A DNA stretch of 64,000 nucleotides from an uncultured Mycoplasmatota bacterium (GCA_947649365.1 CANSRH010000008.1:1795-65794); one strand, 5' to 3'; shown: positions 3,080 through 51,328, counted from the first letter of the stretch. Notes: a model not told the origin generated them from the letters alone. Translations and numbers: made by a program.

Positions 3080-3775
3080 ATGGAATATGTTTATCACGGT
3101 AGTAAAATTCAAGGATTAAAAATACTAATTCCGCATAAGTCAACACATGGAACATATGTGTATGCGACTAAAATCAAAGCAATAGCAATTATAATGTCAA
3201 AAAGATGTGGTGATGATGCGACATATAGTTTAGGGTCGAATGAAGGTGATAAACTAGATTTAATTGAAAGATTACCTAATGCTTTTGAAAAAATGTTTTC
3301 GAATAAATTTTCGTTATATACATTAGATAGTGCATTATTTAAAAATATAAATACTGGATTTGATGAAGTTGTATCAGAAACTGAAGTTCCAGTTATAAAA
3401 GAAGAAACGTATCTAAGTTTAATAGATGCTATAAATAAATTAGTTGATAATAATTTAATTAATATATATTATTACCCTGATAGACCTAATTATATTCCAG
3501 AGGATGATAGTGATTTAATTGATAAAGTTAGAAATCTTTATATAGGAAAAATGCATAAACAATATACAGATAGAGAAATTGCTCGTTGGATTTTTTTACA
3601 TCCTAATTTGGAAGATGAATTTAGAATTCTTGCAAAAGAACAAAATATTAATGTACCGAGTTATGATGAAATAAAAAAGATATTCATTAATGCTCAAAAA
3701 GAAAGACCAGAACATGAAATGTATATTGATAATGCATTAGAAATATATGAACTATATAATAAAAAAAGGAGATAA
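3080..3775 (+). CDS. hypothetical protein (about 231 aa) inserted between parE and parC; no recognisable domain
   Basis: ATG at 3080 with AGGTGA RBS at 3068-3073; the ORF track's GTG at 3071 lies inside the RBS. AT-rich, N/K/Y-rich composition differs from the flanking topo IV genes. Confidence 0.55.
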   Translation: MEYVYHGSKIQGLKILIPHKSTHGTYVYATKIKAIAIIMSKRCGDDATYSLGSNEGDKLDLIERLPNAFEKMFSNKFSLYTLDSALFKNINTGFDEVVSETEVPVIKEETYLSLIDAINKLVDNNLINIYYYPDRPNYIPEDDSDLIDKVRNLYIGKMHKQYTDREIARWIFLHPNLEDEFRILAKEQNINVPSYDEIKKIFINAQKERPEHEMYIDNALEIYELYNKKRR

Positions 3776-7668: not shown

Positions 7669-8547
7669 ATGATTTTAGGTTGTCATGTTAATTTTACAAA
7701 TGAACAATTGCTTGGAAGTACAAAACAAGCTCTTTCTTATGGCGCGAATGCTTTTATGTTTTATACGGGAGCACCTCAAAATACCATGCGTAAATCTTTG
7801 GATATGGATTTGACGAAACAAGCTTGGAGTCTTATGAAGGAAAATCATATTGATTTGAAACATGTGATTTGTCATGCCCCTTATATTGTTAATTTGGCTA
7901 ATAACAAAGAGGAAGAAAAATGGCAATTTAGCATTCATTTTTTAAAACAAGAATTAAAACGTTGCAAAGAATTAGGTGTTTCTTATATTGTTGTTCATCC
8001 TGGAAGTGCAGTTGGTATTGAAAGAGAAACGGCTTTGCAAACTATTAGTAAAGCTTTGAATTGTATTATAGAAGAGGATGGAGTCATGATTTTGCTTGAA
8101 ACCATGGCAGGTAAGGGGACAGAATGTGGCTCTTCTTTGGAAGAAATAAAAGTTATTTTGGATGGGGTAGAATCTAAAAATATTGGTGTATGTTTGGATA
8201 CTTGTCACTTGAATGATGCAGGATATTCCATTCAAGAATTTGATTTACTTTTGGACGAAGTAGAAAAGGTCATTGGTTTAGAAAAAGTACATTGTGTACA
8301 TTTGAATGATAGTAAAAATCCAATGGGAGCACATAAAGATCGACATGAGAATATAGGACTGGGGACAATTGGTTTTTCTGCTCTTTCTTATGTAGTTCAA
8401 CATGAAAAATTAAAAGATGTTCCTAAAATTTTAGAAACACCTTATGTAGAGCGTGCCTACCCACCTTATCAATTTGAAATTGAAAGTTTAAAGGCAGGAC
8501 ATGAAAATCCACATTTACTTTCAGATATTATGAATTTTTATAAATAA
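7669..8547 (+). CDS. nfo: deoxyribonuclease IV (endonuclease IV, AP endonuclease family 2)
   Basis: LGCHVNF..GANAFMFYTGAPQNT..HAPYIVNLA..VVHPGS..HLNDSKN motifs match the Nfo TIM-barrel metal ligands. ATG at 7669 with AGGTGA RBS. Confidence 0.85.
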   Translation: MILGCHVNFTNEQLLGSTKQALSYGANAFMFYTGAPQNTMRKSLDMDLTKQAWSLMKENHIDLKHVICHAPYIVNLANNKEEEKWQFSIHFLKQELKRCKELGVSYIVVHPGSAVGIERETALQTISKALNCIIEEDGVMILLETMAGKGTECGSSLEEIKVILDGVESKNIGVCLDTCHLNDAGYSIQEFDLLLDEVEKVIGLEKVHCVHLNDSKNPMGAHKDRHENIGLGTIGFSALSYVVQHEKLKDVPKILETPYVERAYPPYQFEIESLKAGHENPHLLSDIMNFYK

Positions 8548-8798
8548 TTTTTGTAACGAGTAGAGTATTCTTTAAATAATTTTTTAATTTTGATTAGGTT
8601 TTCTTCTGAATATTTGTCTTGGTAGCGGTCAAAGTTTAATGCATTTGGATTGGCAATAACTGTTTGCCAATTTTTTTTCACGAAAACATAAGTAAATTCC
8701 AATTCTTCTTCGTTTAAAACAATGTTATTTTTTAAAGCAAAGTTATTGATATCGTCTTTTGTTAGTTTATTCATATATCTTTCTATTATATTAAACAT
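8538..8798 (-). CDS. DUF2624-like small protein (86 aa)
   Basis: Convergent small ORF overlapping the nfo stop by a few nt. The sequence pattern resembles Bacillus DUF2624 proteins. Confidence 0.4.
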   Translation of the reverse strand: MFNIIERYMNKLTKDDINNFALKNNIVLNEEELEFTYVFVKKNWQTVIANPNALNFDRYQDKYSEENLIKIKKLFKEYSTRYKNYL

Positions 8799-8862
8799 AA
8801 TACCACCTAGTATTATTGTATGAAAATTTCTTTTTTTTGAATACTAATAGTAGGTGTTTTTT

Positions 8863-10812
8863 ATGAAAAAAGTGTATTATTTGTTTATTTTCTTTTTTTT
8901 ATGCATTACTTTGTTTGCTCTTTATCGATTGACATTTTTAAAAGGTGCTTATTATCAAGATGTTTATGATAATAAAACCAATGTCTATGTGGAGTCTTTG
9001 TCTACTCCTAGAGGAAGAATTTTAGATATTCATGGAAATGTTTTGGTGGATAATGTAGGAGTAAAAACAATTGTTTATCGTAAGTTAAATGATATTTCTG
9101 TTGAAAAAGAGATGGAAGTTGCTTATCGTCTTGCCAATTTGTTGTCTTTTCCTGAGCAAGCGAGTGTATTAGAATTGAAAAAATTTTGGATGGTGAAATA
9201 TTCTGATGAAGCAAAACGTTTGCTTACTAGTGAAGAGTATCGTTTGTATGAGGAGAGAAAGCTAAATAGTCAAGATTTGTATTTGTTAAAGTTGGATCGA
9301 ATTACAGAGGAAGTGTTGTCTATTTTTTCAGAGGAAGATCAAAAGGCGGCTTATGTGTATGCATTAATGAATAAAGGATATTATTATGATGCAAAGGTAA
9401 TTAAAAAAGCAGTGATGGAAGAAGAGTATGCTTCTGTTTTGGAAGAGAAACTTATGGGGGTTACGAATGAAATGTATTTTGAAAGAGATTATCCTTATGG
9501 GAGTACTTTGAGAGGTTTGTTTGGAAAGATAGGAAGTATTCCGAAAGAAGAGGAAAGTGATTATTTACGTCGTGGGTATGCATCAAATGATATTGTAGGT
9601 ATTAGTTATCTTGAAAAAGAGTACGATACTTTTCTTCGTGGGGAAAAGGACACATATAAAATCAATCAGGATGGAACGCTTACACAGGTGAAGGAAGGAA
9701 AACGAGGAAATGATTTGGTTTTAAGTATTGATATTGCTATGCAACTTGGGATTGAAGAAATTGTAAAGGAACAAATAAAGAAGGGGAAAACGTTACCGAA
9801 TACAGAGTATTATAATGGTAGTTATGTTTTGATTGGAGATACAAAAACTGGTGCAATGAAAGCGATTGTGGGTCTTAAAATGGTTGGAGAAGATGTGTTT
9901 GTTTCCACAGAGAGTGATGTTGTGAATTCTTCTTTTACGGTTGGAAGTGTAGTAAAAGGGGCTTCTATGGCAATGGCTTATCAAAATGGTCTTGTGGATG
10001 TTGGGAAAAAAATAAAGGATGCGTGTGTGAAACTTTATTTGGTTCCTCAAAAGTGTTCTTATAAAAGCTTAGGGTATGTGGATGATATTACTGCTTTGAA
10101 GACAAGTTCTAATTATTATCAATTTTTACTTGCTATTCGACTTGCTGGTTATGAGTATTCTTATAATATGAAAATGAATGTGACTGAACGCGAATTTTCT
10201 ATTTATCGAAATGCTTTTGCTCAGTTTGGTTTAGGAGTGGAAACAGGTATTGATTTGCCTAAAGAGGTGACAGGGATTCAAGGAACAAAAATTGCTCCTG
10301 ATTTGCTTCTTAATTTTGCGATTGGGCAGTACGATACTTATACCCCTTTGCAATTGTTGCAGTACATTAATACCATTGCAAATAAGGGAAATAGAATGCG
10401 CTTGTCTTTGGTAGATCATATTGTAGATAAAGAAGGAGTAGTTTTGTTAAAAAAAGAGCCCGAAGTTTTGAGTACGTATGCTTTGGATTCTTCTTATTTT
10501 GATCGAATTCAAACAGGATTTTATCAAGTGGTGAATTTGGGAACTGGATATGGATATACGGATGTTGCTTTTCGTCCTGCTGGTAAAACGGGAACGAGTG
10601 AAACATATTTTGATTCGAATCAAGATGGTACGGGAGATGTTTTAACTATTACGAATACATATGCTATGTATGCTCCTTATGATGATGCCAAGTATAGTAT
10701 GGTGGTGATTAGTCCGAATGTTAATCATTATGAAGGAAAGACGGATTATTTTGCTTATATTAATCGATACATTAGCCGTGCTGTTAGTGATTATGTGTTT
10801 ACAAATTATTAG
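8863..10812 (+). CDS. penicillin-binding protein, class B transpeptidase (PBP2-like)
   Basis: N-terminal membrane anchor and a PBP dimerisation region (STPRGRILDIHGNVLVDN). Transpeptidase motifs SVVK (SxxK) and KTGTSE (KTG). ATG at 8863 after AGGTG; the GTG at 8854 overlaps the RBS. Confidence 0.8.
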   Translation: MKKVYYLFIFFFLCITLFALYRLTFLKGAYYQDVYDNKTNVYVESLSTPRGRILDIHGNVLVDNVGVKTIVYRKLNDISVEKEMEVAYRLANLLSFPEQASVLELKKFWMVKYSDEAKRLLTSEEYRLYEERKLNSQDLYLLKLDRITEEVLSIFSEEDQKAAYVYALMNKGYYYDAKVIKKAVMEEEYASVLEEKLMGVTNEMYFERDYPYGSTLRGLFGKIGSIPKEEESDYLRRGYASNDIVGISYLEKEYDTFLRGEKDTYKINQDGTLTQVKEGKRGNDLVLSIDIAMQLGIEEIVKEQIKKGKTLPNTEYYNGSYVLIGDTKTGAMKAIVGLKMVGEDVFVSTESDVVNSSFTVGSVVKGASMAMAYQNGLVDVGKKIKDACVKLYLVPQKCSYKSLGYVDDITALKTSSNYYQFLLAIRLAGYEYSYNMKMNVTEREFSIYRNAFAQFGLGVETGIDLPKEVTGIQGTKIAPDLLLNFAIGQYDTYTPLQLLQYINTIANKGNRMRLSLVDHIVDKEGVVLLKKEPEVLSTYALDSSYFDRIQTGFYQVVNLGTGYGYTDVAFRPAGKTGTSETYFDSNQDGTGDVLTITNTYAMYAPYDDAKYSMVVISPNVNHYEGKTDYFAYINRYISRAVSDYVFTNY

Positions 10813-10925: not shown

Positions 10926-10949
10926 AGGCGCAAATTTAGGAGGTTGACT

Positions 10950-11663
10950 ATGGAAGAAATTAATTTAAAAGAATTGTTTGAGTTTTTTAAGTCAAAATTT
11001 TTGTATCTGATTGCAATTGTAGTAACCATTTGTTTTGTTGTTTTGTTTTATTTGTTTGTGATACAACAACCAAGATATGAGTCTTCTACTTCTTTGATTT
11101 TAACCGGTTTTACTAATGTGAATAAAGATAATGAAGCAGCTATCAGTACAAATGATTTAAACATTAATCAAAAGTTATTAGCAACTTATCAAGAAATTAC
11201 AAAGTCTAAAAAAGTATTGGAACAAGTGATTCAAAGTTTAAGTCTTTCTTCTTCTGTCGAAACCTTAGCGAAGCATGTTTCTGTTACAGGAGTTCCCGAT
11301 ACAGAGATTATTAAGATTACCGTGTCTGATGGGAATGCCGAGGTAGCGTACCGAATTGTAGGAAAAATTGCTGAGGTGTTTAGTGAAGAAGTAAAAACGA
11401 TTTATAATGTTTCTAATGTTAGTATTTTGGATACTCCTAGTATTGCAACGAAAGCATCCAATATGGCACTTTCAAAAGCTTTGTTGGTTTCTTTGGTTTT
11501 GGGGATTGTGATTTCATTCAGTATTTTGTTTGTTGCTTATTATTTTGATACTACAGTAAAGAATGCTACTCAAATTGAAGCAAGAGTAGGAGTTCCTGTG
11601 TTGGGTTCTATTCCAGATTATCATAAAAAAAGTGTTCGAAAGAAGAAAAGAGGGAATGAGTAA
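10950..11663 (+). CDS. polysaccharide chain-length determinant / BY-kinase transmembrane modulator (Wzz/CpsC/YwqC family), copy 1
   Basis: Two TM segments flank a periplasmic Wzz-like domain. The conserved C-terminal motif (GSIPDY..KK, ending in a K/R tail) activates the cognate kinase. ATG at 10950 after GGAGG. Confidence 0.8.
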   Translation: MEEINLKELFEFFKSKFLYLIAIVVTICFVVLFYLFVIQQPRYESSTSLILTGFTNVNKDNEAAISTNDLNINQKLLATYQEITKSKKVLEQVIQSLSLSSSVETLAKHVSVTGVPDTEIIKITVSDGNAEVAYRIVGKIAEVFSEEVKTIYNVSNVSILDTPSIATKASNMALSKALLVSLVLGIVISFSILFVAYYFDTTVKNATQIEARVGVPVLGSIPDYHKKSVRKKKRGNE

Positions 11664-12337
11664 TGGATGAATTGATTGTTAGTAAAAATCCAAAATGTAG
11701 TGTTGCAGAAGCCATTCGAGTGATTCGAACGAATATTCAATTTTCTTTGAAATTAAAAAAAGGAAAAATGATTTTGGTGACTTCTTCTGTAAAAGGGGAA
11801 GGGAAGAGTTTTGTTAGTTCCAATTTGGCCGTTTCTTTTGCTCAGAAAAATTTAAAGGTGTTGCTTGTGGATTCTGATTTACGTCTTGGTCGATTGCATC
11901 AAATTTTCAAAGCAAGTAATAAGAACGGATTTTCTGAACTTTTGGTGAATGATGATGGACGAAAGTATCAAAAGTATGTCAAAGATACAGGGATCGAAAA
12001 TCTTTCGTTTATTTCAAGAGGAATGGTTCCTCCTAATCCTAGTGAACTTTTGGATTCTCCCAATATTGCTTCTTTTTTGGAACAAGCGGGAAACGATTAT
12101 GATGTGATTTTGTTTGATGGTACACCAATTAATGGCTTGACGGACTCTTTGGTGTTTACAAAATATGTAGATAAAGTTGTGGTCGTTAGTGCTGCGAATT
12201 ATACCAAGATGAATTTATTAGAGAATACCATTAAAAGTTTACAAAATTTACATGTTGATATTGCTGGTGTTGTTTTAAATAAAGTATCTATCAATTCTTC
12301 TAGCTCTTATTATAATGATTATTATACGGATTTATGA
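11663..12337 (+). CDS. tyrosine-protein kinase (BY-kinase, CpsD/Wze/YwqD family), copy 1
   Basis: Walker A (TSSVKGEGKS), Walker A-prime (VLLVDSDLR), Walker B (VILFDG). C-terminal Tyr cluster (SSSYYNDYYTDL). Start overlaps the upstream stop. Confidence 0.85.
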   Translation: MDELIVSKNPKCSVAEAIRVIRTNIQFSLKLKKGKMILVTSSVKGEGKSFVSSNLAVSFAQKNLKVLLVDSDLRLGRLHQIFKASNKNGFSELLVNDDGRKYQKYVKDTGIENLSFISRGMVPPNPSELLDSPNIASFLEQAGNDYDVILFDGTPINGLTDSLVFTKYVDKVVVVSAANYTKMNLLENTIKSLQNLHVDIAGVVLNKVSINSSSSYYNDYYTDL

Positions 12338-13065
12338 TTGATATTCATTCTCATGTTTTGTATGGAATTGATGATGGGGCAAAAACAGTAGAGGAAAGTG
12401 TAGCAATTCTTAAACAAATGGCAGACTTAGGGTTTACAAAACTGCTTGTTACACCCCATTATATGGAAAATACAGAATATGTTGCTGATAATAAAAGAAA
12501 GAAAGAAATTATAAAAGAGTTAAAAGAAAAATTAGAAGAAGAATCGATTGCTTTGGAATTGTATTTAGGAAACGAAGTATATATTTTTGAAGAGATTGTT
12601 GAAAGGATTCAAAGCCAAGCCATTTTTACTTTGAACCAAACCAATTATATTTTGGTAGAACTTCCACTTTTAGAACATATGCACGCAGATTTGGATATTT
12701 TGTTTGAGTTGGTTGCAAGTGGCGTGCATGTTGTTCTTGCTCATCCTGAACGTTATGTTCTGTTTCAAAAAAATCCAAACTTGTTAGATAAATATACCGA
12801 TATGGGGATTTTGTTACAAGGGAATTATGAATCTCTTTGTGGGAAGTATGGAAAGAAAACACAAGCTTTAATGAAACAATGGTTAAAAGAAAAACGATAT
12901 TTTACTTTAAGTAGTGATGTTCATAAAGAAAATTCTAGTTTTTTTAAGAATTTTCCTAAAGTACAAAAAAAATTATTAAAATTGGTAGATACGATATATT
13001 TGCAACAATTGCAAAAGGAAAACCCTCAAAAAATATTGGATGGTGTGTATGTAGAAAATGACTAG
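12334..13065 (+). CDS. phosphotyrosine-protein phosphatase, PHP family (CpsB/Wzh/YwqE)
   Basis: N-terminal MIDIHSHVLYGIDDGA and downstream His/Asp metal ligands (VLAHPERY) typical of CpsB. Overlaps the kinase stop. Confidence 0.85.
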   Translation: MIDIHSHVLYGIDDGAKTVEESVAILKQMADLGFTKLLVTPHYMENTEYVADNKRKKEIIKELKEKLEEESIALELYLGNEVYIFEEIVERIQSQAIFTLNQTNYILVELPLLEHMHADLDILFELVASGVHVVLAHPERYVLFQKNPNLLDKYTDMGILLQGNYESLCGKYGKKTQALMKQWLKEKRYFTLSSDVHKENSSFFKNFPKVQKKLLKLVDTIYLQQLQKENPQKILDGVYVEND

Positions 13066-14393: not shown

Positions 14394-15086
14394 ATGGAAG
14401 AACTGGATTTAAGAGATTTATTGTCTTATTTTGGAAGTAAAATAGTTTCTTTTCTTTTTATTGTTTGTTTAGTAGTTACCGCTGGTTGTTTGTATTCTGT
14501 ATTTGTCCAAAAACCAGAATATACTTCAAAAACAAGTATTATTTTGACAGGATTTAGTAGTAATACGGAGTCTTCCATTACACAGTCTGATTTGACCGTA
14601 AATTCGAAACTTGTAAGTACTTATCAAGAAATTGTAAAGAGTCGTCGCGTTCTTAGTCAAGTAATTACCAATTTACGTCTTACTTTTACTACCAAGGAAC
14701 TGGCTCGTATGATTTCTGTTGGGGCAGTGAATGACACAGAGATTATTGAAATCTCTGTTACGAATTTGGATGCAAAACAAGCTTATTTGATTGCGAATGA
14801 GGTTGCAGAAGTGTTTGGTCATGAAGCGAAAGATTTGTACAATTTGTCAAATGTTTCTATTTTGGATTATGCAGAAATTGAGTCCGTACCATCGAATTTG
14901 AATATTACAAAGCAAGTATGTATTTATATTCTTGCTGGATTTCTTTTGGCTTTTGTTCTTTTGTTTGTGATTTATTATTTTGATACTTCTCTTAAGAGTG
15001 TTCATGATGTGGAAAGAAAGTTTGATTTGACCATTTTAGGTTCTGTTCCTGATTATACAAAGAAAAAGAAAAAGGGAGGAAAGTAA
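14394..15086 (+). CDS. Wzz/CpsC-family BY-kinase modulator, copy 2 (paralog)
   Basis: Same architecture as 10950-11663 (MEE..L..FG....IV, two TMs, GSVPDY..KKKKKGGK tail). Clearly homologous but diverged from copy 1. Confidence 0.8.
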   Translation: MEELDLRDLLSYFGSKIVSFLFIVCLVVTAGCLYSVFVQKPEYTSKTSIILTGFSSNTESSITQSDLTVNSKLVSTYQEIVKSRRVLSQVITNLRLTFTTKELARMISVGAVNDTEIIEISVTNLDAKQAYLIANEVAEVFGHEAKDLYNLSNVSILDYAEIESVPSNLNITKQVCIYILAGFLLAFVLLFVIYYFDTSLKSVHDVERKFDLTILGSVPDYTKKKKKGGK

Positions 15087-15087
15087 A

Positions 15088-15756
15088 ATGAATAATGAAA
15101 TTATTGTAGATCATAATCCTAAGAGTAGTGTTGCAGAAGCTATACGGATTATAAGAACAAATTTGGAGTTTTCAGGTGTAGATAAAAAAATTCATTCTGT
15201 TTTGATTACATCGTCTGTTCCATCAGAAGGAAAAAGTTTTATTAGTACAAATTTAGCAACTGCTTTTGCTCAAAACGGAAGTAAAGTTTTACTTATGGAT
15301 TGCGATATGCGTAAAGGTAGGTTGCATAAGATTTTTAATATTGTGAACGATAAGGGATTGTCTAATCTTCTTCTTGAAAATGTGGAGACAAAGTTTAGTA
15401 GTTATATTAAAAAAACCAATATTGAGAATTTGTATCTTTTACCGAAAGGAGTAGTTCCTCCTAATCCTAGTGAATTATTAAATTCTCCTAAGACAAAAGT
15501 TTTATTACGGACTTTATCTGATCGATTTGATTATATTATTTTGGATGGAACTCCAGTAAATGGTTTAACCGATTCGTTGATACTTACAAAATATGTTGAT
15601 AAAACAGTGATTGTTGCATCTTTAAATTATACAAAGACCAATGATTTGGAGTTTACAAAAAAGAGTTTAATGAGTGTAGGAGCAGATATAGCTGGGGTGA
15701 TTGTGAATAAAACACAAGATATTCATGGCAATTATTATGGCAATTATTATGAATGA
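15088..15756 (+). CDS. tyrosine-protein kinase (BY-kinase) copy 2 (paralog)
   Basis: Walker A (TSSVPSEGKS), Walker A-prime (VLLMDCDMR), Walker B (ILDG). C-terminal Tyr cluster (HGNYYGNYYE). No adjacent PHP phosphatase. Confidence 0.85.
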   Translation: MNNEIIVDHNPKSSVAEAIRIIRTNLEFSGVDKKIHSVLITSSVPSEGKSFISTNLATAFAQNGSKVLLMDCDMRKGRLHKIFNIVNDKGLSNLLLENVETKFSSYIKKTNIENLYLLPKGVVPPNPSELLNSPKTKVLLRTLSDRFDYIILDGTPVNGLTDSLILTKYVDKTVIVASLNYTKTNDLEFTKKSLMSVGADIAGVIVNKTQDIHGNYYGNYYE

Positions 15757-25597: not shown

Positions 25598-25911
25598 TTT
25601 TTCTTTTTTTCTATTCTTTCGACATGAATTGACAAAATGGTACATTGTATTCATGAAATGACAGTCTTTTTTCTTTTTATTATACTTTATATTAGTAGAG
25701 AGAATAGATAGGACGTTTCCATCGTTTCATGATTTTTATAGAAACAACGTTGTTCTTTTTACAGCATTGTTTTGTGAGATAATAAAGTAGTAACTGTTTC
25801 AAAGTAGTTGGTTTCTTTGGAATACAGTTTTTTATTTTGGATGTTCCATTCATTATTTAAAAAAAAGCAGTACATTTTTTGTATTGCTTTTCTTTTTGGG
25901 GAGGAATTTTT

Positions 25912-26271
25912 ATGAGTCAAATTTATGAGAAATATGTGGCTTTAAAAGAGAAGAATAAAGAATTAATGTATTTGTTTCGAAGTGGAAATTTCTATATCTT
26001 TTTAGGGGAGGATGCAGAAAAAATTAACGAATACGTGGTTTTAAAAAAGACTCAGTTTTGTAAAGAAGCTTTGAAGTGTGGATTTCCAGTTTCAAGTTTG
26101 GATGCTTATCTTCGTATTTTTCAAAATCATGGATTGGATGTGAAAGTAGTAGAAAAAGAACTTGTTTCTTGTGAAAAGTTAATTGAATCTTTACGCAAAT
26201 TGGATTTGGATCATACGACTCCTATTCGAGCATTAAATATTTTGAAGGAATTAAAGGAATCATTAAAATAA
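25912..26271 (+). CDS. standalone MutS domain I-like mini protein (about 119 aa)
   Basis: ATG at 25912 after GGGGAGG. YEKYVALKEKNKELMYLFRSGNFYIFLGEDAEKI parallels the MutS N-terminal mismatch-binding domain (QQY..IK..HPD.LLFFR.GDFYELFYEDA). The C-terminal TPIRALNILKEL resembles the MutS C-terminal tail. Confidence 0.45.
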   Translation: MSQIYEKYVALKEKNKELMYLFRSGNFYIFLGEDAEKINEYVVLKKTQFCKEALKCGFPVSSLDAYLRIFQNHGLDVKVVEKELVSCEKLIESLRKLDLDHTTPIRALNILKELKESLK

Positions 26272-27158: not shown

Positions 27159-28118
27159 ATGGCCGTTGTTTCTATGAGTTATTTATTAGAAGCAGGAGTT
27201 CATTTTGGACATCAAACAAAAAGATGGAATCCAAAAATGAAACAATACATTTTTGCTGCAAGAGATGAAATTCATATTATTGATTTGTCAAAAACAGCAG
27301 AAAAATTAGAGGAAGGATACCAAGCAATTAAAACAATTGCAGATAATGGTGGAACATTCTTGTTTGTTGGTACGAAAAAACAAGCAAGTGAAGTTTGTAA
27401 AGAAGAAGCCATCCGTAGTAACAGTTACTATGTAACTGAAAGATGGTTGGGTGGTACTCTTACTAATTTTAGAACTATTAGAAGAAGAGTAAAACGTTTA
27501 GAAGAAATCGAAGCGATGGAATCCAATGGAGTATTTGAAGTACTTCCTAAAAAAGAAGTGATTGGACTTCGTAAAGAATATGAAAAATTGAATCGTGTGC
27601 TATGTGGAATTCGTGAAATGAATAAATTGCCACAAGCAGTGATTATTGTAGATCCTAAAAAAGAAATTAATGCAATTCGTGAAGCAAGAAAGTTAAATAT
27701 TCCAGTATTTGGTCTTGTAGATACAAATTGTGATCCAGATGATGTAGATTACGTTATTCCAGCAAATGATGATGCAGTGAGAGCTGTTAAAGTTGTTATT
27801 GGTGTTTTAAATAATGCTATTTGTGAATCACGTAATTTAGAAATGGTTGATTATGTTACAGAAGAAGATAAAAATAAAAAAGAATTTAACCAAGAAGTGG
27901 TAGAAAAATCTCCTAAAAAAGAAGAAGTACCTGTTGTTGAAACAACGAAAGAAGAAATTTCTGTAAAAGAAGAAACTGTTTTGGAAGAACAACCAGTAGA
28001 AGCTTCTACTGATTATAGTAAAATGACTTTGACAGAATTAAAAGCAATTGCTAAAGAACAAGGTGTTAAAGGTTATAGTGCAATGAAAAAAGATGAATTG
28101 ATTGCAAATTTAAAATAA
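27159..28118 (+). CDS. rpsB: 30S ribosomal protein S2 with C-terminal extension carrying a Rho_N-like helical motif
   Basis: N-terminal [19 protein letters not shown] is the S2 signature. The protein is 319 aa against about 250 typical. The last 30 aa ([31 protein letters not shown]) match the Rho N-terminal/SAP-like motif. Confidence 0.85.
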
Positions 28119-28142
28119 ATTTTAGGAAAAGGAGTGTGTGTT

Positions 28143-29024
28143 ATGGAAATTAGTGCAAGTATGGTTCGTGATTTACGTGAAGCTAGTGGAGCAGGTATGA
28201 TGGATTGCAAAAAGGCTTTGTCTGAATGCAATGGCGATATGGAAGCTGCTATGGATTATTTGCGTGAAAAAGGAATTGCGAAAGCAGAGAAAAAAGGAAG
28301 CCGTATTGCAGCAGAGGGACTCGCTAATATTTTTGTTGAAGGAAATAAAGCAGTGATTTTGGAAGTGAATTCTGAGACTGATTTTGTTAGTAAAAATGAA
28401 GAATTTACTACTATGATTGAAGTAATTGGTACTGCTATTTTGAAAAGCGATGTTACAACTTTAGAAGAAGCATTGCAAATTTCTTTAGAAGAAGGAACGA
28501 TTTCTGATTTAATTGTAGCTAAGACAGCTAAAATTGGTGAAAAGTTATCTTTGAGAAGAATAGAAGTTGTTCTAAAAGAGAACGATGAAGTATTTGGTTC
28601 TTATTTACACATGGGTGGTAAAATTGCGGTACTCTCTGTTTTAAAGGGTGCAAATGAAGCTGTTGCAAAGGATGTTTCTATGCAATCTGCTGCTATGAAA
28701 CCAAGTTATGTTTTTACAAGTGACGTTCCAGAGGATGTTGTTCTTCGTGAACGCGAAGTGTTGAAAGAACAAGCTATGAATGAGGGAAAACCAGCAGATA
28801 TTGCTGAAAAAATGGTAGAAGGAAGATTGAATAAATTTTATAAAGAAATCTGCCTTGCTGAACAAGCATTTATTAAAGATGGCGATGTTAGTGTATCCAC
28901 TTATGTAAAAAATAATGGTGGAGAAATTAAATCTATGATTCGTTATGAAGTTGGTGAAGGAATGGAACATAGAAGTGACAACTTTGCTGAGGAAGTTATG
29001 AATCAAGTAAATGGAACGAATTAA
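28143..29024 (+). CDS. tsf: translation elongation factor Ts
   Basis: EISASMVRDLREASGAGMMDCKKAL is the UBA-like N-terminus of EF-Ts. ATG at 28143 after AAGGAG. Confidence 0.85.
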   Translation: MEISASMVRDLREASGAGMMDCKKALSECNGDMEAAMDYLREKGIAKAEKKGSRIAAEGLANIFVEGNKAVILEVNSETDFVSKNEEFTTMIEVIGTAILKSDVTTLEEALQISLEEGTISDLIVAKTAKIGEKLSLRRIEVVLKENDEVFGSYLHMGGKIAVLSVLKGANEAVAKDVSMQSAAMKPSYVFTSDVPEDVVLREREVLKEQAMNEGKPADIAEKMVEGRLNKFYKEICLAEQAFIKDGDVSVSTYVKNNGGEIKSMIRYEVGEGMEHRSDNFAEEVMNQVNGTN

Positions 29025-29037
29025 TTCCTAGTTAGAA

Positions 29038-29070
29038 TGTCAATGAGAATCACTCATTGGCATTTTTTTG
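29038..29070 (+). terminator. rho-independent terminator of tsf (UGUCAAUGAG-AAUCA-CUCAUUGGCA + U-run)
   Basis: 10-bp stem with one G-U pair followed by TTTTTTT at 29064-29070. Confidence 0.6.
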
Positions 29071-29127
29071 ATTGAAATAAAATTAAATGTAAGATAAAAT
29101 TGTAATAGAAAATAGAGGAGAGATGAA

Positions 29128-30430
29128 ATGAAAAAAGAAAAGAAAATCCTCCCAACCAGTCGAATTCGTCTGGGGGGGGGGTATATTAAGTAAACCAGAA
29201 GGATTAGAAAGGTTTAGTAAAAACAAAAGAAACAAGAAAGTAGTACTTGGTTCTATATTAGGGATATTCATAGTACTAGGAAGTATAACACTATACAAAA
29301 CATTTGCTTTATATAAAGAAGAAAAGACATTTAATGTAATTAGAGGTCAAGTCCCAGAATTTCAAAGGATGGATATAGAACTACTATCATTTACATTGGA
29401 TGGAAAGAATATAGAAACAGCGCCAAGTAAGGGAGCGTATGATGTAAGTATAACATGTAACAATGGAGCAGAAGGATATTGGGATTATGAAGAATGGGGA
29501 GTAGAAATAAAAAACATAACCAAGCAAACAAAATGTAATATAACATTTACTACAGGGAAATATTTTAGTGAGTATATAAAAGATATAAGTAAGAGTAGTA
29601 GTAATGTAGTAAAGGTAAGTCATGAAAAAACAGAACAGACCCCAGCATTAGAAGATTATCGATATGTTGGATCTAACCCAGATAATTATGTCTATTTTGG
29701 ATGTAGTGAGAATTGTACGGATGATAATTTATATCGAGTGATTGGAGTCATCCCAACCCAAAGTACTATGGATGGAGAATATGAAAATCGAGTAAAACTG
29801 GTTAAAGATAAGTATTATACAGAAAATGAAACTGGATATCTAGAGAATGAAAATAGATATGAATACAATAGAGATACAGGGAGCAATAGTTGGTCAGAAA
29901 GTCCAATAAATAAAAAAGTATTAAATGACATATTTTGGAATTCTTTAGGAGAATATCAAGGGTATATAGAGCAAGCCAAATGGTATTTGGGAGCTCCACT
30001 TGGTGATGATGCTTCGATTTATACTTCAGACAACTTATACAATTTAGAAAGAAGTACAATTAGAGGAAAAAGTGGTGGAGCAATATCCTATATAAATAAT
30101 ATAGGATTAATACATCCAAGTGATTTTGGTTTTACAGTAGAAAGTAAGTATAGAGATAAGAGTATTAATGCCAATCTAGAAATATTTACAAAATCTTGGA
30201 TGACTCGAGGTAAAATGACTATATCACCGGAATCTCATCTAGCTGCTACAGGCCAATATGGTACAATTCATTGGATAATATCAGGATCAAAAAGTGAATT
30301 TTTAAATTGCCATCATACAAAAGGAGGATCTGGTTCTTATATATATCCTACTTTTTATCTAAGTGCTGATGTACAATATAAAAATGGGGATGGAACAAGA
30401 GAAAATCCTTATTGCATAAAAAAAGATTAG
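29128..30430 (+). CDS. phase-variable (currently OFF) membrane-anchored protein; G10 tract at 29172-29181 separates the RBS/ATG/anchor from the 353-aa body (ORF 29369..30430)
   Basis: GAGGAG RBS and ATG at 29128 (frame 1) read MKKEKKILPTSRIRLGGGYIK* through G10. Frame 2 is open from 29132 through 30430 and contains the TM helix VVLGSILGIFIVLGSITLY. One G fewer fuses the two. The internal ATG at 29369 has no usable RBS. Confidence 0.6.
29172..29181. repeat. poly(G)10 homopolymeric tract (slipped-strand mispairing site)
   Basis: The only homopolymeric G/C run of 8 or more in a roughly 30% GC window. Located in the 5' coding region. Confidence 0.8.
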
Positions 30431-30497
30431 ACATTTTCTTTACAAATGTCTTTTTTTCTGCTAGGAAAGCAGTTGTGTTCTTGCTATACTTGTTTTA

Positions 30498-31100
30498 GTG
30501 ATTAATATGAAAAAAGTGAAATTAAAAAATGTTCTTCAATTCCTTTTGTTTCTTGTTATGATTTATTTTTTTATTATTTTAGGTACAAAGGATTTTCAAA
30601 CTAGAGTAGCAGACAATGTCCGTTTTTCTAATGATTATAAAGATATTTCTAAGAATAATGTTTATAAATATATGGGAGAGTATGAAATTTTGGATCTATT
30701 TAATGGCAAATCTGGAATTGTTTTTTTTGGATTTCCAGGAAATATTTGGAGTCATTATTATGCGGATTATTTAAATGAGGTAGCTATTTTGAATAAGATT
30801 GATACCATTTATTATTATGATTTTAGAAGAGATCGTTCTATGAATAATAAGGCTTATACGTATATCGTTAATCATTTGAAAGATTATTTGTCTCTTGATG
30901 ATTTGGGAAATATGGATATAAAAGCTCCTACTGTGATTATTTTAAAAGAGGGGAAAGTCATTTATTTTAATAATGAAATTGTTTTTTTAAAAGGTTTAAT
31001 TACTCCAGAGGAGTATTTTACAGATTTGAAGAAATTACAGTTGAAGAGTCGTTTTGATCAAGCGATTAAAGAGTATTTGAAGGAAGATATTCATGAATGA
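30498..31100 (+). CDS. hypothetical membrane-anchored protein (200 aa)
   Basis: N-terminal TM (LQFLLFLVMIYFFIILG) followed by a soluble domain (GIVFFGFPGNIWSHYY, possibly thioredoxin-fold-like but without CxxC). Confidence 0.4.
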   Translation: MINMKKVKLKNVLQFLLFLVMIYFFIILGTKDFQTRVADNVRFSNDYKDISKNNVYKYMGEYEILDLFNGKSGIVFFGFPGNIWSHYYADYLNEVAILNKIDTIYYYDFRRDRSMNNKAYTYIVNHLKDYLSLDDLGNMDIKAPTVIILKEGKVIYFNNEIVFLKGLITPEEYFTDLKKLQLKSRFDQAIKEYLKEDIHE

Positions 31101-31872
31101 GGAGACAAATAGTTATTTAGGTTTTGGCTATTTCTTTTTGTTTATTTTAGTTATTGTGGTTGTAGGTTCTTTTTTAGTGTATCAGGAGAAACACGAAAAA
31201 GTGAAAGAAGTTCAGGTTCCTATGATAGAAAATTCTGTAAGTGAAAATAAAAAATTAGATCGAACCAAGGATTTTATTTATTACGATAAAGAAGATTGGA
31301 TTGTAAAAGAATTGTCTCTTGCTTATAAGTATCCAGTTATTAATTTGGATAGTGAAGATGCAAGGAATGTTACAACTCGTCTTACAACTATGGTGAATCA
31401 AAAGAAATCTTCTTTGCTTCCCATGAGCGCTAAACCAGAAAGTGTAGAGTGTGCTTCTTCTTATGATATTTATCAAGCAGAAATTGTTGATTTTGATGTT
31501 TTTTCTTATCAAGATTATGTAACTCTTGTTGTTTATTCGTCTTTTTATTCTTGTGATTCAGGTATTTCTTCTATTTTAGAGATGCAATCGTATCCTTTTT
31601 CTATTACTACAGGAGAGCGTGTATCTTATGAGCAGCTTTTGAAAACCTATCGTACTACGTTTTCAGAAGTAACATTATTGATTCGCGATGCTTTGATGGA
31701 AAGTCAAACCTATGTAGATGGTGTGCCCTATATTCAAATTGATGAAACGATTTCTTTATTGGAAGAGAATAAGAATTATATTCTTTTTGTGGATGAGAAT
31801 GGAGAACTTGTTGTGAAATATATTGTCAAAACGAATGGTGTCGATTATAATGATACTATAAGTATAAGTTGA
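31093..31872 (+). CDS. hypothetical membrane-anchored protein (259 aa)
   Basis: N-terminal TM (YFFLFILVIVVVGSFLV) then an extracytoplasmic domain. Overlaps the upstream stop, suggesting an operon. Confidence 0.4.
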   Translation: MNEETNSYLGFGYFFLFILVIVVVGSFLVYQEKHEKVKEVQVPMIENSVSENKKLDRTKDFIYYDKEDWIVKELSLAYKYPVINLDSEDARNVTTRLTTMVNQKKSSLLPMSAKPESVECASSYDIYQAEIVDFDVFSYQDYVTLVVYSSFYSCDSGISSILEMQSYPFSITTGERVSYEQLLKTYRTTFSEVTLLIRDALMESQTYVDGVPYIQIDETISLLEENKNYILFVDENGELVVKYIVKTNGVDYNDTISIS

Positions 31873-31888
31873 AAATGAGGAGGAAATA

Positions 31889-32416
31889 ATGAATATCGAA
31901 CAAAAAATGGAAAAAGCAATTGTAGCTTTAGAAAATAAATTAATTAATATTCGGGCAGGAAGAGCTAATCCTGCTATGTTAAATGGAATTATGGTTTCTT
32001 ACTATGGATCGATGTCTCCAATTCAAAGCCTTGCTAATATTACGGTTCCTGAGGCAAGACAATTGATGATAAAACCATTTGATCGTAGTACTTTAAAGGA
32101 TATTGAAAGAGCCATCAATGAAGCAAATATTGGAATTACTCCAACGAATAATGGAGAAATTATTATTTTAACAGTTCCAGAGCTTACAGAGGATCGAAGA
32201 CGGGAATATGTTAAGCAAGCAAGAGATGTTGCAGAAGAGGCAAAAGTAGCTTTACGTAATATTCGTCAAGATGAAAATAATGCGATAAAAAAAGAAGAAT
32301 ATCCTGAAGATGAAGAAAAAATTCTTTTGAATGAAGTACAAGAAGCCATTAATAAGTACAATAAAATTGTAGAGGAGAAGCTAAAGGAAAAAGAAGAAGA
32401 ACTAATGCATGTTTAG
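31889..32416 (+). CDS. frr: ribosome recycling factor
   Basis: Typical RRF length (175 aa) and motifs (IRAGRANPAMLNGIMVSYYG, LTEDRRREYVKQ). Confidence 0.85.
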   Translation: MNIEQKMEKAIVALENKLINIRAGRANPAMLNGIMVSYYGSMSPIQSLANITVPEARQLMIKPFDRSTLKDIERAINEANIGITPTNNGEIIILTVPELTEDRRREYVKQARDVAEEAKVALRNIRQDENNAIKKEEYPEDEEKILLNEVQEAINKYNKIVEEKLKEKEEELMHV

Positions 32417-50446: not shown

Positions 50447-50650
50447 TAGTTTTTTTGTATATTCTTTTTTGTTTTTTATCATAATTATATAGCTATTGAA
50501 TTTGCAAAAATTCTTCTTTTTATGGGGGAATGTCGATTTTTGTAGACTTTTGCGAAATTTGTGTTACAATAGTAGGCAATTTAATGGATATGTAGTATAA
50601 TGGACTTATGATTAGGGTTATTTTGAAATAGTAATTTTGGAGGAATGGTT

Positions 50651-51328
50651 ATGAATTCAGAAAGTGTGATATTAAGAGAAAGAGTAGAATCTTCAGTTAG
50701 TTTACGCAAAGAATTTTATTTCTTTTTGAAAAGGGCTATTGATATTTTTGTGGGTTTTTTTGGAATTCTTCTGTTGTTTCCCCTTGCTTTTATTATAAAA
50801 GCAGTCTCTATTTACAATAGAGACTATAAAAGTATTTTCTTTAAACAAAAAAGAATTGGACTCAATGGAAAATTATTTACTATGTACAAATTTAGAACAA
50901 TGGTCCCAAATGCAGATGAAATGTTAGTGGAGTTAATGCGTACAGATGCACAATTTCGAAATGAATATTTTGTAAATAAGAAAGTGAAGAATGATCCTAG
51001 AATTACAAAAGTAGGTATGTTTTTAAGGAAAACGTCTTTGGATGAAATTCCCCAATTTATTAATGTATTTTTAGGACAAATGAGTTTAGTAGGGAATCGT
51101 CCTTATTTACCACGTGAAAAAGAGGATATGGGAGAATTTTATAAAGGAATTATTTCAAGTAAACCTGGAATTACTGGCTTATGGCAGACGAGTGGTAGAA
51201 GCAAATTAACATTTTATGATCGTTTAGTAATTGAAAAAAAATATAGTAAAATTCAAAGCTTGAAATTGGATTTAGAGATTGTGTGTAAAACCATTGCACA
51301 AGTCTTTAAAAAAGATGGGGCAGAGTAA
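50651..51328 (+). CDS. undecaprenyl-phosphate sugar phosphotransferase (bacterial sugar transferase family, short form)
   Basis: One N-terminal TM, then KRIGLNGKLFTMYKFRTM...DEIPQFINVFLGQMSLVGNRP, the initiating-transferase catalytic motif. ATG at 50651 after GGAGG. Confidence 0.8.
   Translation: MNSESVILRERVESSVSLRKEFYFFLKRAIDIFVGFFGILLLFPLAFIIKAVSIYNRDYKSIFFKQKRIGLNGKLFTMYKFRTMVPNADEMLVELMRTDAQFRNEYFVNKKVKNDPRITKVGMFLRKTSLDEIPQFINVFLGQMSLVGNRPYLPREKEDMGEFYKGIISSKPGITGLWQTSGRSKLTFYDRLVIEKKYSKIQSLKLDLEIVCKTIAQVFKKDGAE

Follow-up and report, generated by a model that had tools for sequence, protein, structure and literature searches.

What occupies the interval between tsf and frr in a genome where pyrH is missing from it, and how did it come to be there? 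The question is raised by a 64-kb, AT-rich stretch of DNA (GC content ∼30%) from an uncultured Mycoplasmatota bacterium (GCA_947649365.1, contig CANSRH010000008.1), referred to below as the window. In it rpsB and tsf are followed by a hairpin terminator, by three genes for N-terminally anchored proteins, which we call isl1, isl2 and isl3, and then by frr. The three intervening genes lie on the same strand and the product of each has an N-terminal hydrophobic anchor. A first-pass annotation described them as a three-gene accessory island. Our comparison with relatives makes it likely that the interval consists of two layers: an old, clade-typical isl2–isl3 pair, and a later, species-specific insertion of a single gene, isl1, that would be switched by a poly-G tract near its start.

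The isl1 insertion and its boundaries

Relatives were collected in two ways. A scan of the genome collection with EF-Ts as the query returned 80 loci, the 13 nearest to the window being metagenome-assembled genomes (MAGs) of uncultured gut 'Bacilli/Tenericutes' with EF-Ts 53–75% identical, and closer relatives (L093–L097, L093 being GCA_949025205.1) were reached via homologues of isl2 and isl3. In L093–L096, where isl2 is 62% identical, and in L097, where isl3 is 66% identical, the order is rpsB (with its Rho_N extension), tsf, isl2, isl3, frr; no isl1 stands between tsf and isl2, and these two genes are 88 nucleotides apart in L093–L096 and 77 nucleotides apart in L097. When L093–L097 are aligned with the window by blastn, the alignment ends at 29016 and resumes at 30423–30426. 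The sequence that follows the isl1 stop codon, TAGACATTTTCTTTACAAATGTCTTTTTTTCTGCTAGGAAAG...TGCTATACT, is homologous to what L097 and L093 have immediately behind the stop codon of tsf. Downstream of frr, L097 has the same order as the window (pgm on the minus strand, a 310-amino-acid gene and ileS). The features of the interval are as follows.

29017–30423, no strand assigned: isl1 cassette, an insertion of ∼1.4 kb relative to the sister species, delimited by the blastn breakpoints
29034–29070, + strand: hairpin (14-pair stem at 29034–29066) and T-run that came with the insertion, now the terminator after tsf
29072–29100, + strand: predicted isl1 promoter-like site, TTGAAA-17-TAAAAT, 10/12 consensus match
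29128–29193, + strand: isl1 start and leader in the ATG frame, which at G10 ends after 21 codons (MKKEKKILPTSRIRLGGGYIK and a stop), OFF
29148–29181, + strand: leader hairpin, CCUCCC..CCAG paired with CUGG..GGGGGG
29172–29181, + strand: G10 homopolymer tract, the putative switch; G9 restores the frame
29180–30430, + strand: isl1 main reading frame, open to 30430
30429–30457, + strand: ancestral tsf terminator (GACATTT...AAATGTC and T7), now 3′ of isl1; aligns with the post-tsf sequence of L097 and L093
30482–30490, + strand: predicted extended –10 promoter-like element for isl2–isl3, TGCTATACT
30507–31100, + strand (start 30498 or 30507): isl2, predicted membrane-anchored thioredoxin-fold protein with NIWS for CxWC, from the family alignment
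31093–31872, + strand: isl3, membrane-anchored, with a PdaC/DUF4163–DUF3298-like fold; overlaps isl2 by 8 nucleotides
31823–31851, + strand: frr promoter-like site inside the 3′ end of isl3, TTGTCA-17-TATAAT, 11/12 match

The insert contains only one open reading frame. By these alignments the isl1 cassette, equipped with its own hairpin, promoter-like site and ribosome-binding site, is an insertion, probably a recent one, that came to lie behind the tsf stop codon and in front of the ancestral terminator; isl2 and isl3 are old residents of the lineage and not acquired genes. At the tsf site isl1 is present in the window's species and absent in L093–L097. Other assemblies contain four short contigs of this species, 99.98–100% identical to the window, and isl1 sequence is present in all of them; the insertion is therefore species-specific and not strain-specific, as far as sampled. 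The island of the first-pass annotation is thus retained in part: something accessory was inserted into the rpsB–tsf...frr region and it encodes what may be a variable surface protein, but it is one gene, and the synteny comparison places isl2 and isl3 at the same position in sister species that have no isl1. For these two genes this is the lineage-typical layout that the first-pass annotation had itself named as counting against an accessory origin.

How isl1 arrived is not marked in the DNA around it, as no meaningful direct or inverted repeats flank the insertion, no integrase accompanies it, and the window holds no tRNA gene. Elsewhere the neighbourhoods of isl1 homologues are unrelated: they lie near rubrerythrin and pheST, or between mntP and murA, or after leuS, or before ruvAB. 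For the closest homologues, P0002 and P0005, no encoding contigs are on record.

Terminators and predicted promoters

The features described by the earlier annotation are present in the sequence with small corrections of coordinates, for example a terminator hairpin at 29034–29066. This hairpin is stable (–17.1 kcal/mol, z = –4.5), and none of 200 shuffled sequences folds as well. Behind it lie the promoter-like site and the ribosome-binding site of isl1 (AGAGGAGAG, at ∼29112–29120), and a similar TTGAAA-17-TAGAAT precedes the homologue in L085. The extended –10 element upstream of isl2 reads TGTTATAAT in L097 and TGTTATACT in L093. With the ancestral terminator and the extended –10 element placed after isl1 and before isl2, the three genes do not make up a single transcription unit, and the co-transcribed module proposed at first has to be given up. 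For frr, the TTGTCA-17-TATAAT site is the best of the scanned region and both of its hexamers are identical in L097 and L093; this conservation is ambiguous because the same bases encode the invariant C-terminus of isl3. A separate promoter for frr, within the 3′ end of isl3, is probable.

A poly-G tract in the isl1 leader

As assembled, isl1 is interrupted. The frame that opens at the ATG at 29128, behind a good ribosome-binding site, stops at 29191–29193, and its codons 15–18 (CTG, then three GGG) cross the G10 tract. Removal of one G yields a 433-amino-acid protein whose N-terminus is homologous to that of intact homologues, with 417 codons open downstream of the tract. In the window a G10 run is expected ∼0.005 times by chance, and the next longest G run is 6. 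The same leader, composed of a ribosome-binding site, an ATG, a K-rich peptide, CTC-CCA-AC(C/T), 13–20 nucleotides and a G-tract, is found in L085 (two genes), L086 and L208. We inspected seven tracts:

Window: G10, OFF
L085, first gene: G10, OFF
L085, second gene: G10, OFF
L086: G10, OFF
L206: G10, OFF
L208: G10, ON (TGG precedes the tract, giving a different frame offset)
L207: G9, ON

The genes in L206 and L207 are near-identical and differ in state by a single G, while their upstream contexts differ. Database homologues include in-frame full leaders (P0044, P0047 and P0025) and an interrupted tract (P0069), and many others are N-terminally truncated gene calls that begin at or after the tract. 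ON and OFF alleles thus coexist among the homologues, and their mix, with roughly one third ON, fits slipped-strand contingency loci.

The history and the working of the locus could then be as follows. The isl2–isl3 pair, with its own extended –10 promoter, would be the older layer in the tsf–frr gap, from which pyrH is gone in this clade. The isl1 cassette of ∼1.4 kb would have landed later, just behind the tsf stop codon and ahead of the old terminator, bringing a terminator, a promoter, a ribosome-binding site and the leader. In the assembled state translation from the ATG at 29128 would end after 21 codons, leaving isl1 OFF. If slipped-strand mispairing at replication removed one G or added two, the leader would be joined in frame to the 417 downstream codons and isl1 would be turned ON, so that in a cell population a surface protein with a type II anchor would be toggled stochastically and heritably.

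Such a switch has well-known counterparts in the poly-G and poly-C contingency genes of Campylobacter jejuni, Haemophilus influenzae and Neisseria. Shared with these are an AT-rich genome, a tract of G9–G10 near the 5′ end of the coding sequence for a surface protein, a toggle between full-length product and early stop by ±1 G, and the occurrence of ON and OFF alleles among homologues. In contrast, the host of isl1 belongs to an uncultured, Gram-positive-type lineage of gut Bacilli, its switching is predicted from sequence, and its tract is part of a conserved portable leader (ribosome-binding site, K-rich peptide, LPT, G-tract, signal anchor) that has a hairpin between CCUCCC and the G-run. 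The proposed mechanism is of a familiar kind; the novelty lies in the lineage of its host, in the portable leader and in the putative ectodomain of DUF6273 type described below. A limited search of the literature for phase variation through homopolymeric tracts in metagenomes of Firmicutes did not turn up this system. It appears that a poorly known lineage of uncultured gut Bacilli uses Campylobacter-style poly-G contingency switches, which provides a testable handle on host- or phage-facing surface variation and points to where more such switches may lie.

The leader hairpin (–22.2 kcal/mol, z = –2.7) deserves separate consideration. The same fold is present in L085:1062–1099 and L086:5873–5913 (–25.5 and –27 kcal/mol), with z from –2.7 to –3.9 over the set, and its CCUCCC arm resembles an anti-Shine–Dalgarno sequence. 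It is built from rare codons, namely CTC (10 of 1078 Leu codons, 0.9%), CTG (18 of 1078), ACC and three GGG. That a hairpin should be made of nearly unused codons suggests selection at the nucleotide level. The leaders of L206 and L207 are entirely without CCTCCC, and the hairpin is therefore not essential to the switch.

Two observations speak against free switching of isl1. The window's own locus shows no variation in tract length, L083, the only other assembly covering the tract, also having G10; and among the seven inspected tracts six have a length of exactly G10, a narrower spread than free drift of a repeat would lead one to expect. The second of them would suit an alternative in which isl1 is not a heritable switch at all, with G10 maintained and full-length protein made at a low, set rate by RNA-polymerase slippage or +1 ribosomal frameshifting, assisted by the hairpin. 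Five of the six G10 tracts would need the same +1 correction, and the construction of a conserved hairpin from very rare codons would make sense under such a scheme. However, L207 is in frame at G9 and L208 is in frame at G10 through another offset, so the frame relationship is not conserved, as in contingency loci; the proportion of alleles, about one third ON and two thirds OFF, is that expected for random tract lengths; and two leaders have no CCTCCC. RNA-polymerase slippage, moreover, is best documented on runs of A or T and not of G. We consider this explanation improbable. A long shot of a similar kind is that the leader is a portable switch of expression which, in uncultured gut Bacilli, has become joined to more than one kind of ectodomain gene. 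Its mRNA hairpin would pair CCUCCC with the G run, its tract would be held near G10, and full-length protein would come from programmed slippage of RNA polymerase or the ribosome, or from hairpin-tuned slippage of DNA, and not from unassisted drift of the repeat.

It might also be supposed that isl1 is a dead pseudogene, or that the frameshift is an assembly error in the homopolymer of an intact gene. The gene is indeed disrupted as assembled, homopolymers are error-prone in sequencing, and the coverage of the related short contigs is low (∼4x). Nevertheless we think this doubtful: an independent assembly of the same species also has G10, the tract is the only lesion and 417 codons downstream are open, four further genes, spread over three other genomes, have a tract at the same point of the leader, and a genome of 30% GC would not keep G10 by chance. 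Slipped-strand switching of a functional isl1 thus seems to us the better account of the tract.

Several further tracts and leader copies were noticed in relatives. In L093 an isl1-family paralogue (L093:366–1568) is found ∼1.5 kb before rpsB; a tract worn down to GAGAGGGGGGT (G6) leaves it in frame and locked ON. The second leader copy in L085 (∼7945–8000, G10, OFF) precedes a different protein of 524 amino acids (gene 8098–9672), which has a weak FGE-sulfatase/C-type-lectin-like match (E = 0.01); because of this copy, the leader appears to be shared between different ectodomain genes. In L207, positions 3315–3325 form a G11 tract between the two hexamers of a promoter-like TTGACA-N20-TATAAT, behind which comes the next large gene, one without a Pfam domain. 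This relative would then have a poly-G switch of a second kind, acting on transcription. The pattern CCTCCCAACC-N8-30-TG8 was also sought in JGI metagenomes. It returned 108 stretches, none of them in the context of a low-GC leader with an ATG and a K-rich peptide, and they were rejected as chance or unrelated. The isl1 family seems confined to gut assemblies of ENA, NCBI and Logan.

The isl1 protein

The 72 homologue clusters of the isl1 family come without exception from uncultured assemblies, and Pfam assigns a domain to none of them. At the reporting threshold, Pfam and NCBIfam searches with isl1, isl2 and isl3 of the window returned nothing, and a sequence-profile search of the PDB with isl1 gave no meaningful match. 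The AlphaFold2 model of isl1 (mean predicted local distance difference test score, pLDDT, 82.6) shows a transmembrane helix, which follows a K-rich tail predicted to be cytoplasmic, a beta-sandwich and a large alpha/beta domain, probably of DUF6273/C-type-lectin-like type. Its only significant structural match in the PDB is 9QA6, the immunoglobulin A (IgA) peptidase of Thomasclavelia ramosa (Foldseek E = 1.2e–5, probability 1.0, 319 columns). In that enzyme (IgAse/ThomasA) the N-terminal domain, residues 31–322, is an enlarged C-type-lectin-like domain assigned to DUF6273 and is dispensable for catalysis (PMC12237041, PMC12402451).

Because HExxH (from the zinc motif HExxHxxxGxxD) is absent from the isl1 sequence and the fold match is to a peptidase with a DUF6273 N-terminal domain, we do not read isl1 as a peptidase. 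It is also too short to hold the 313-residue M64 catalytic domain beside the region matched to 9QA6. The model rather points to a DUF6273-type binding module on a membrane anchor, with a putative ligand- or glycan-binding role. Both isl1 and the T. ramosa enzyme are surface proteins of gut Bacilli and match in fold, but isl1 has neither the M64 domain nor HExxH, and it is held by an N-terminal transmembrane helix, whereas the T. ramosa enzyme has a signal peptide and a sortase motif. If this is correct, the proteins under poly-G control belong to a membrane-anchored family of ∼70 members that carry a DUF6273/C-type-lectin-like domain, the same kind of domain as the unexplained N-terminal one of the IgA peptidase. 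A role in phage-receptor masking or exclusion, as suggested initially, finds no specific support: against a library of viral folds isl1 gave one borderline, unnamed match.

The isl2–isl3 pair

For isl2 we found 37 close homologues, and 851 representative clusters by profile search. In the columns of N82-I-W-S85 of the window protein, most of the cysteine-keeping members among the best 150 representatives have CPWC or CxWC. Pro144, for which a cis conformation is assumed, is invariant in the close family, and Pro is found at this position in 139 of 151 aligned representatives. The assignment of isl2 to the thioredoxin fold is made because of this conservation of CxWC and Pro in the wider family, and isl2 is accordingly best described as a predicted thioredoxin-fold protein that has lost its redox cysteines. 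As both cysteines are lost, CxWC having degenerated to NIWS in this subclade, it cannot be a thiol-disulfide oxidoreductase. More direct comparisons gave low scores: the CPWC-bearing homologue in L002 matches TIGR01295 (PedC/BrcD) at 4.6e–8 with 33 bits against a cut-off of 120, the window isl2 has no match to TIGR01295, CPWC representatives have subthreshold matches to the thioredoxin-clan Pfam families TraF, Redoxin and Thioredoxin_8, and hhalign of the isl2 profile with E. coli TrxA aligned the correct motif region at 5% probability. Sequence-profile searches of the PDB with isl2 and isl3 gave no meaningful match. With disulfide isomerases of the PedC/BrcD type, isl2 and its relatives share the N-terminal anchor, CPWC or CxWC in most of the best relatives, and the conserved proline of cis-Pro type; they differ in a score far below the cut-off and in the NIWS of the window protein, and there is no bacteriocin locus nearby.

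The isl3 model (pLDDT 81.8) consists of a transmembrane helix, a disordered linker and a globular domain, for which Foldseek finds 3cyg_A (E = 1.5e–4, probability 1.0) and, more weakly, 4e72 (DUF3298) and 2hhi (MPT64). Twelve homologues were found, and in L093–L097 isl3 always adjoins isl2. PF13739 (PdaC) matches one of 11 isl3 homologues at E = 0.0068, and none at the gathering score. The fold is like that of the N-terminal domain of PdaC, the lysozyme-binding domain of RsiV and MPT64 (DUF4163/DUF3298), and PdaC and RsiV also have an N-terminal transmembrane anchor; unlike them, isl3 carries no deacetylase or anti-sigma domain and is paired with a redox-dead thioredoxin-like protein. Two cysteines of isl3 are kept or lost together among the homologues, a pattern suggestive of a disulfide bond and of a location outside the cytoplasm. 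The two genes form a translationally coupled pair, whose products may make up an extracytoplasmic envelope complex, perhaps one that is chaperone-like or ligand-binding and works without redox chemistry. The pairing of a redox-dead thioredoxin-like protein with a PdaC/DUF3298-like one next to frr makes up a small unexplained envelope module.

It should be noted that several points count against this description of the interval's proteins and signals. The TM-scores are modest, 0.33 for isl1 against 9QA6, at a sequence identity of 12%, and 0.44–0.51 for isl3. The Foldseek output gives no alignment ranges for the 9QA6 match, and its placement on the N-terminal domain rests on domain size, secondary structure, the missing HExxH and a single weak DUF6273 match: the Pfam family does not match isl1 of the window and matches one of 35 family members at E = 0.0063. 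The topology of isl3 is ambiguous by the positive-inside rule, its cysteine pair being the only ground for an extracytoplasmic location. Finally, all the promoters are consensus matches only.

pyrH and the tsf–frr interval in relatives

The first-pass annotation had the three genes take the place of pyrH, stating that pyrH lies between tsf and frr in most Firmicutes and is absent from the window. Both premises are borne out. Among the fetched loci, tsf–pyrH–frr(–uppS) is the order in Bacillaceae, Listeria, Erysipelotrichaceae (e.g. Breznakia) and many Clostridia, and tblastn of the window with seven diverse PyrH queries (E ≤ 10) gave no credible pyrH, the best match having E = 0.04 over 70 amino acids. 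The conclusion does not follow. None of the 13 nearest loci has pyrH downstream of tsf, and in L020 tsf adjoins frr directly, with an empty gap and no pyrH. The absence of pyrH is therefore older than the insertion of isl1 and has nothing to do with it; throughout the clade examined the gene was relocated from the tsf–frr site, or lost there, long ago. Compared with the canonical Firmicutes cluster, rpsB–tsf–pyrH–frr(–uppS–cdsA), the window keeps the order and orientation of rpsB–tsf and frr, while the gap between tsf and frr in its clade has no pyrH. The missing pyrH and two of the three supposed island genes are thus matters of clade-level synteny and not of acquisition.

In other members of the clade the gap is filled differently. 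Homologues of isl2 lie directly 3′ of tsf in L045 (phmmer E = 2e–15) and L002 (3e–13); in L045 the gap holds this isl2-like gene and another anchored protein, and the 304-amino-acid gene between the isl2-like gene and frr has no detectable homology to isl3. L001–L005 are rearranged and keep remnants of the old uppS–cdsA–rseP–proS–polC neighbourhood. The gaps of L006, L030 and L038 contain other large membrane-anchored or secreted proteins, with a DUF4176 protein in L006. As the proteins in these three gaps differ, genes for surface proteins have come to land between tsf and frr repeatedly in the clade.

A single co-transcribed, strain-specific accessory island in the place of pyrH, perhaps serving phage exclusion, is very unlikely in view of all this: three same-strand genes for anchored proteins in a window without pyrH, and the varied anchored proteins in the gaps just mentioned, would suit it, but sister species have isl2–isl3 at the same position without isl1, a conserved terminator and promoter part isl1 from isl2, pyrH is missing clade-wide including L020, and neither mobility genes nor flanking repeats nor an anomalous composition were found. 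As to composition, the GC content of the three genes (0.24–0.32) is close to that of the flanks (∼0.30–0.34) and shows no clear anomaly, so that the genes could not be confirmed as unlike the rest of the window.

Flanking genes and other features of the window

The genes on either side of the interval are assigned by strong Pfam matches.

27159–28118, + strand: rpsB, ribosomal protein S2 with a C-terminal Rho_N/SAP-like extension (Pfam Ribosomal_S2, 2e–95)
28134–29024, + strand: tsf, EF-Ts (Pfam EF_TS, 1.5e–70); likely start ATG 28143
31889–32416, + strand: frr, ribosome recycling factor (Pfam RRF, 3.1e–56)

In other assemblies tsf is recorded as a 293-amino-acid form starting at 28143. The extension of RpsB (residues ∼285–317) matches Pfam Rho_N at residues 287–317 (1.7e–10). 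Close relatives also match RpsB over its full length including this extension, most of the 13 nearest loci have it, and, as it is present in the nearest MAG relatives and not in Bacillaceae, it can serve as a clade marker.

Upstream of rpsB, at 25879–26271, lies a gene whose stand-alone product of ∼120–130 amino acids consists of MutS domain I and nothing else (PF01624, as on record for this gene in L083, where it is identical); a MutS fragment truncated in this way is unusual. Further genes for surface structures are found at some distance from the interval. Two successive sets of genes for a Wzz-like chain-length determinant and a CpsD-like tyrosine kinase lie at 10944–13065 and 14394–15756, the first set being followed by a CpsB phosphatase gene, and a sugar transferase gene lies at 50645–51328; together these represent capsule or exopolysaccharide loci.

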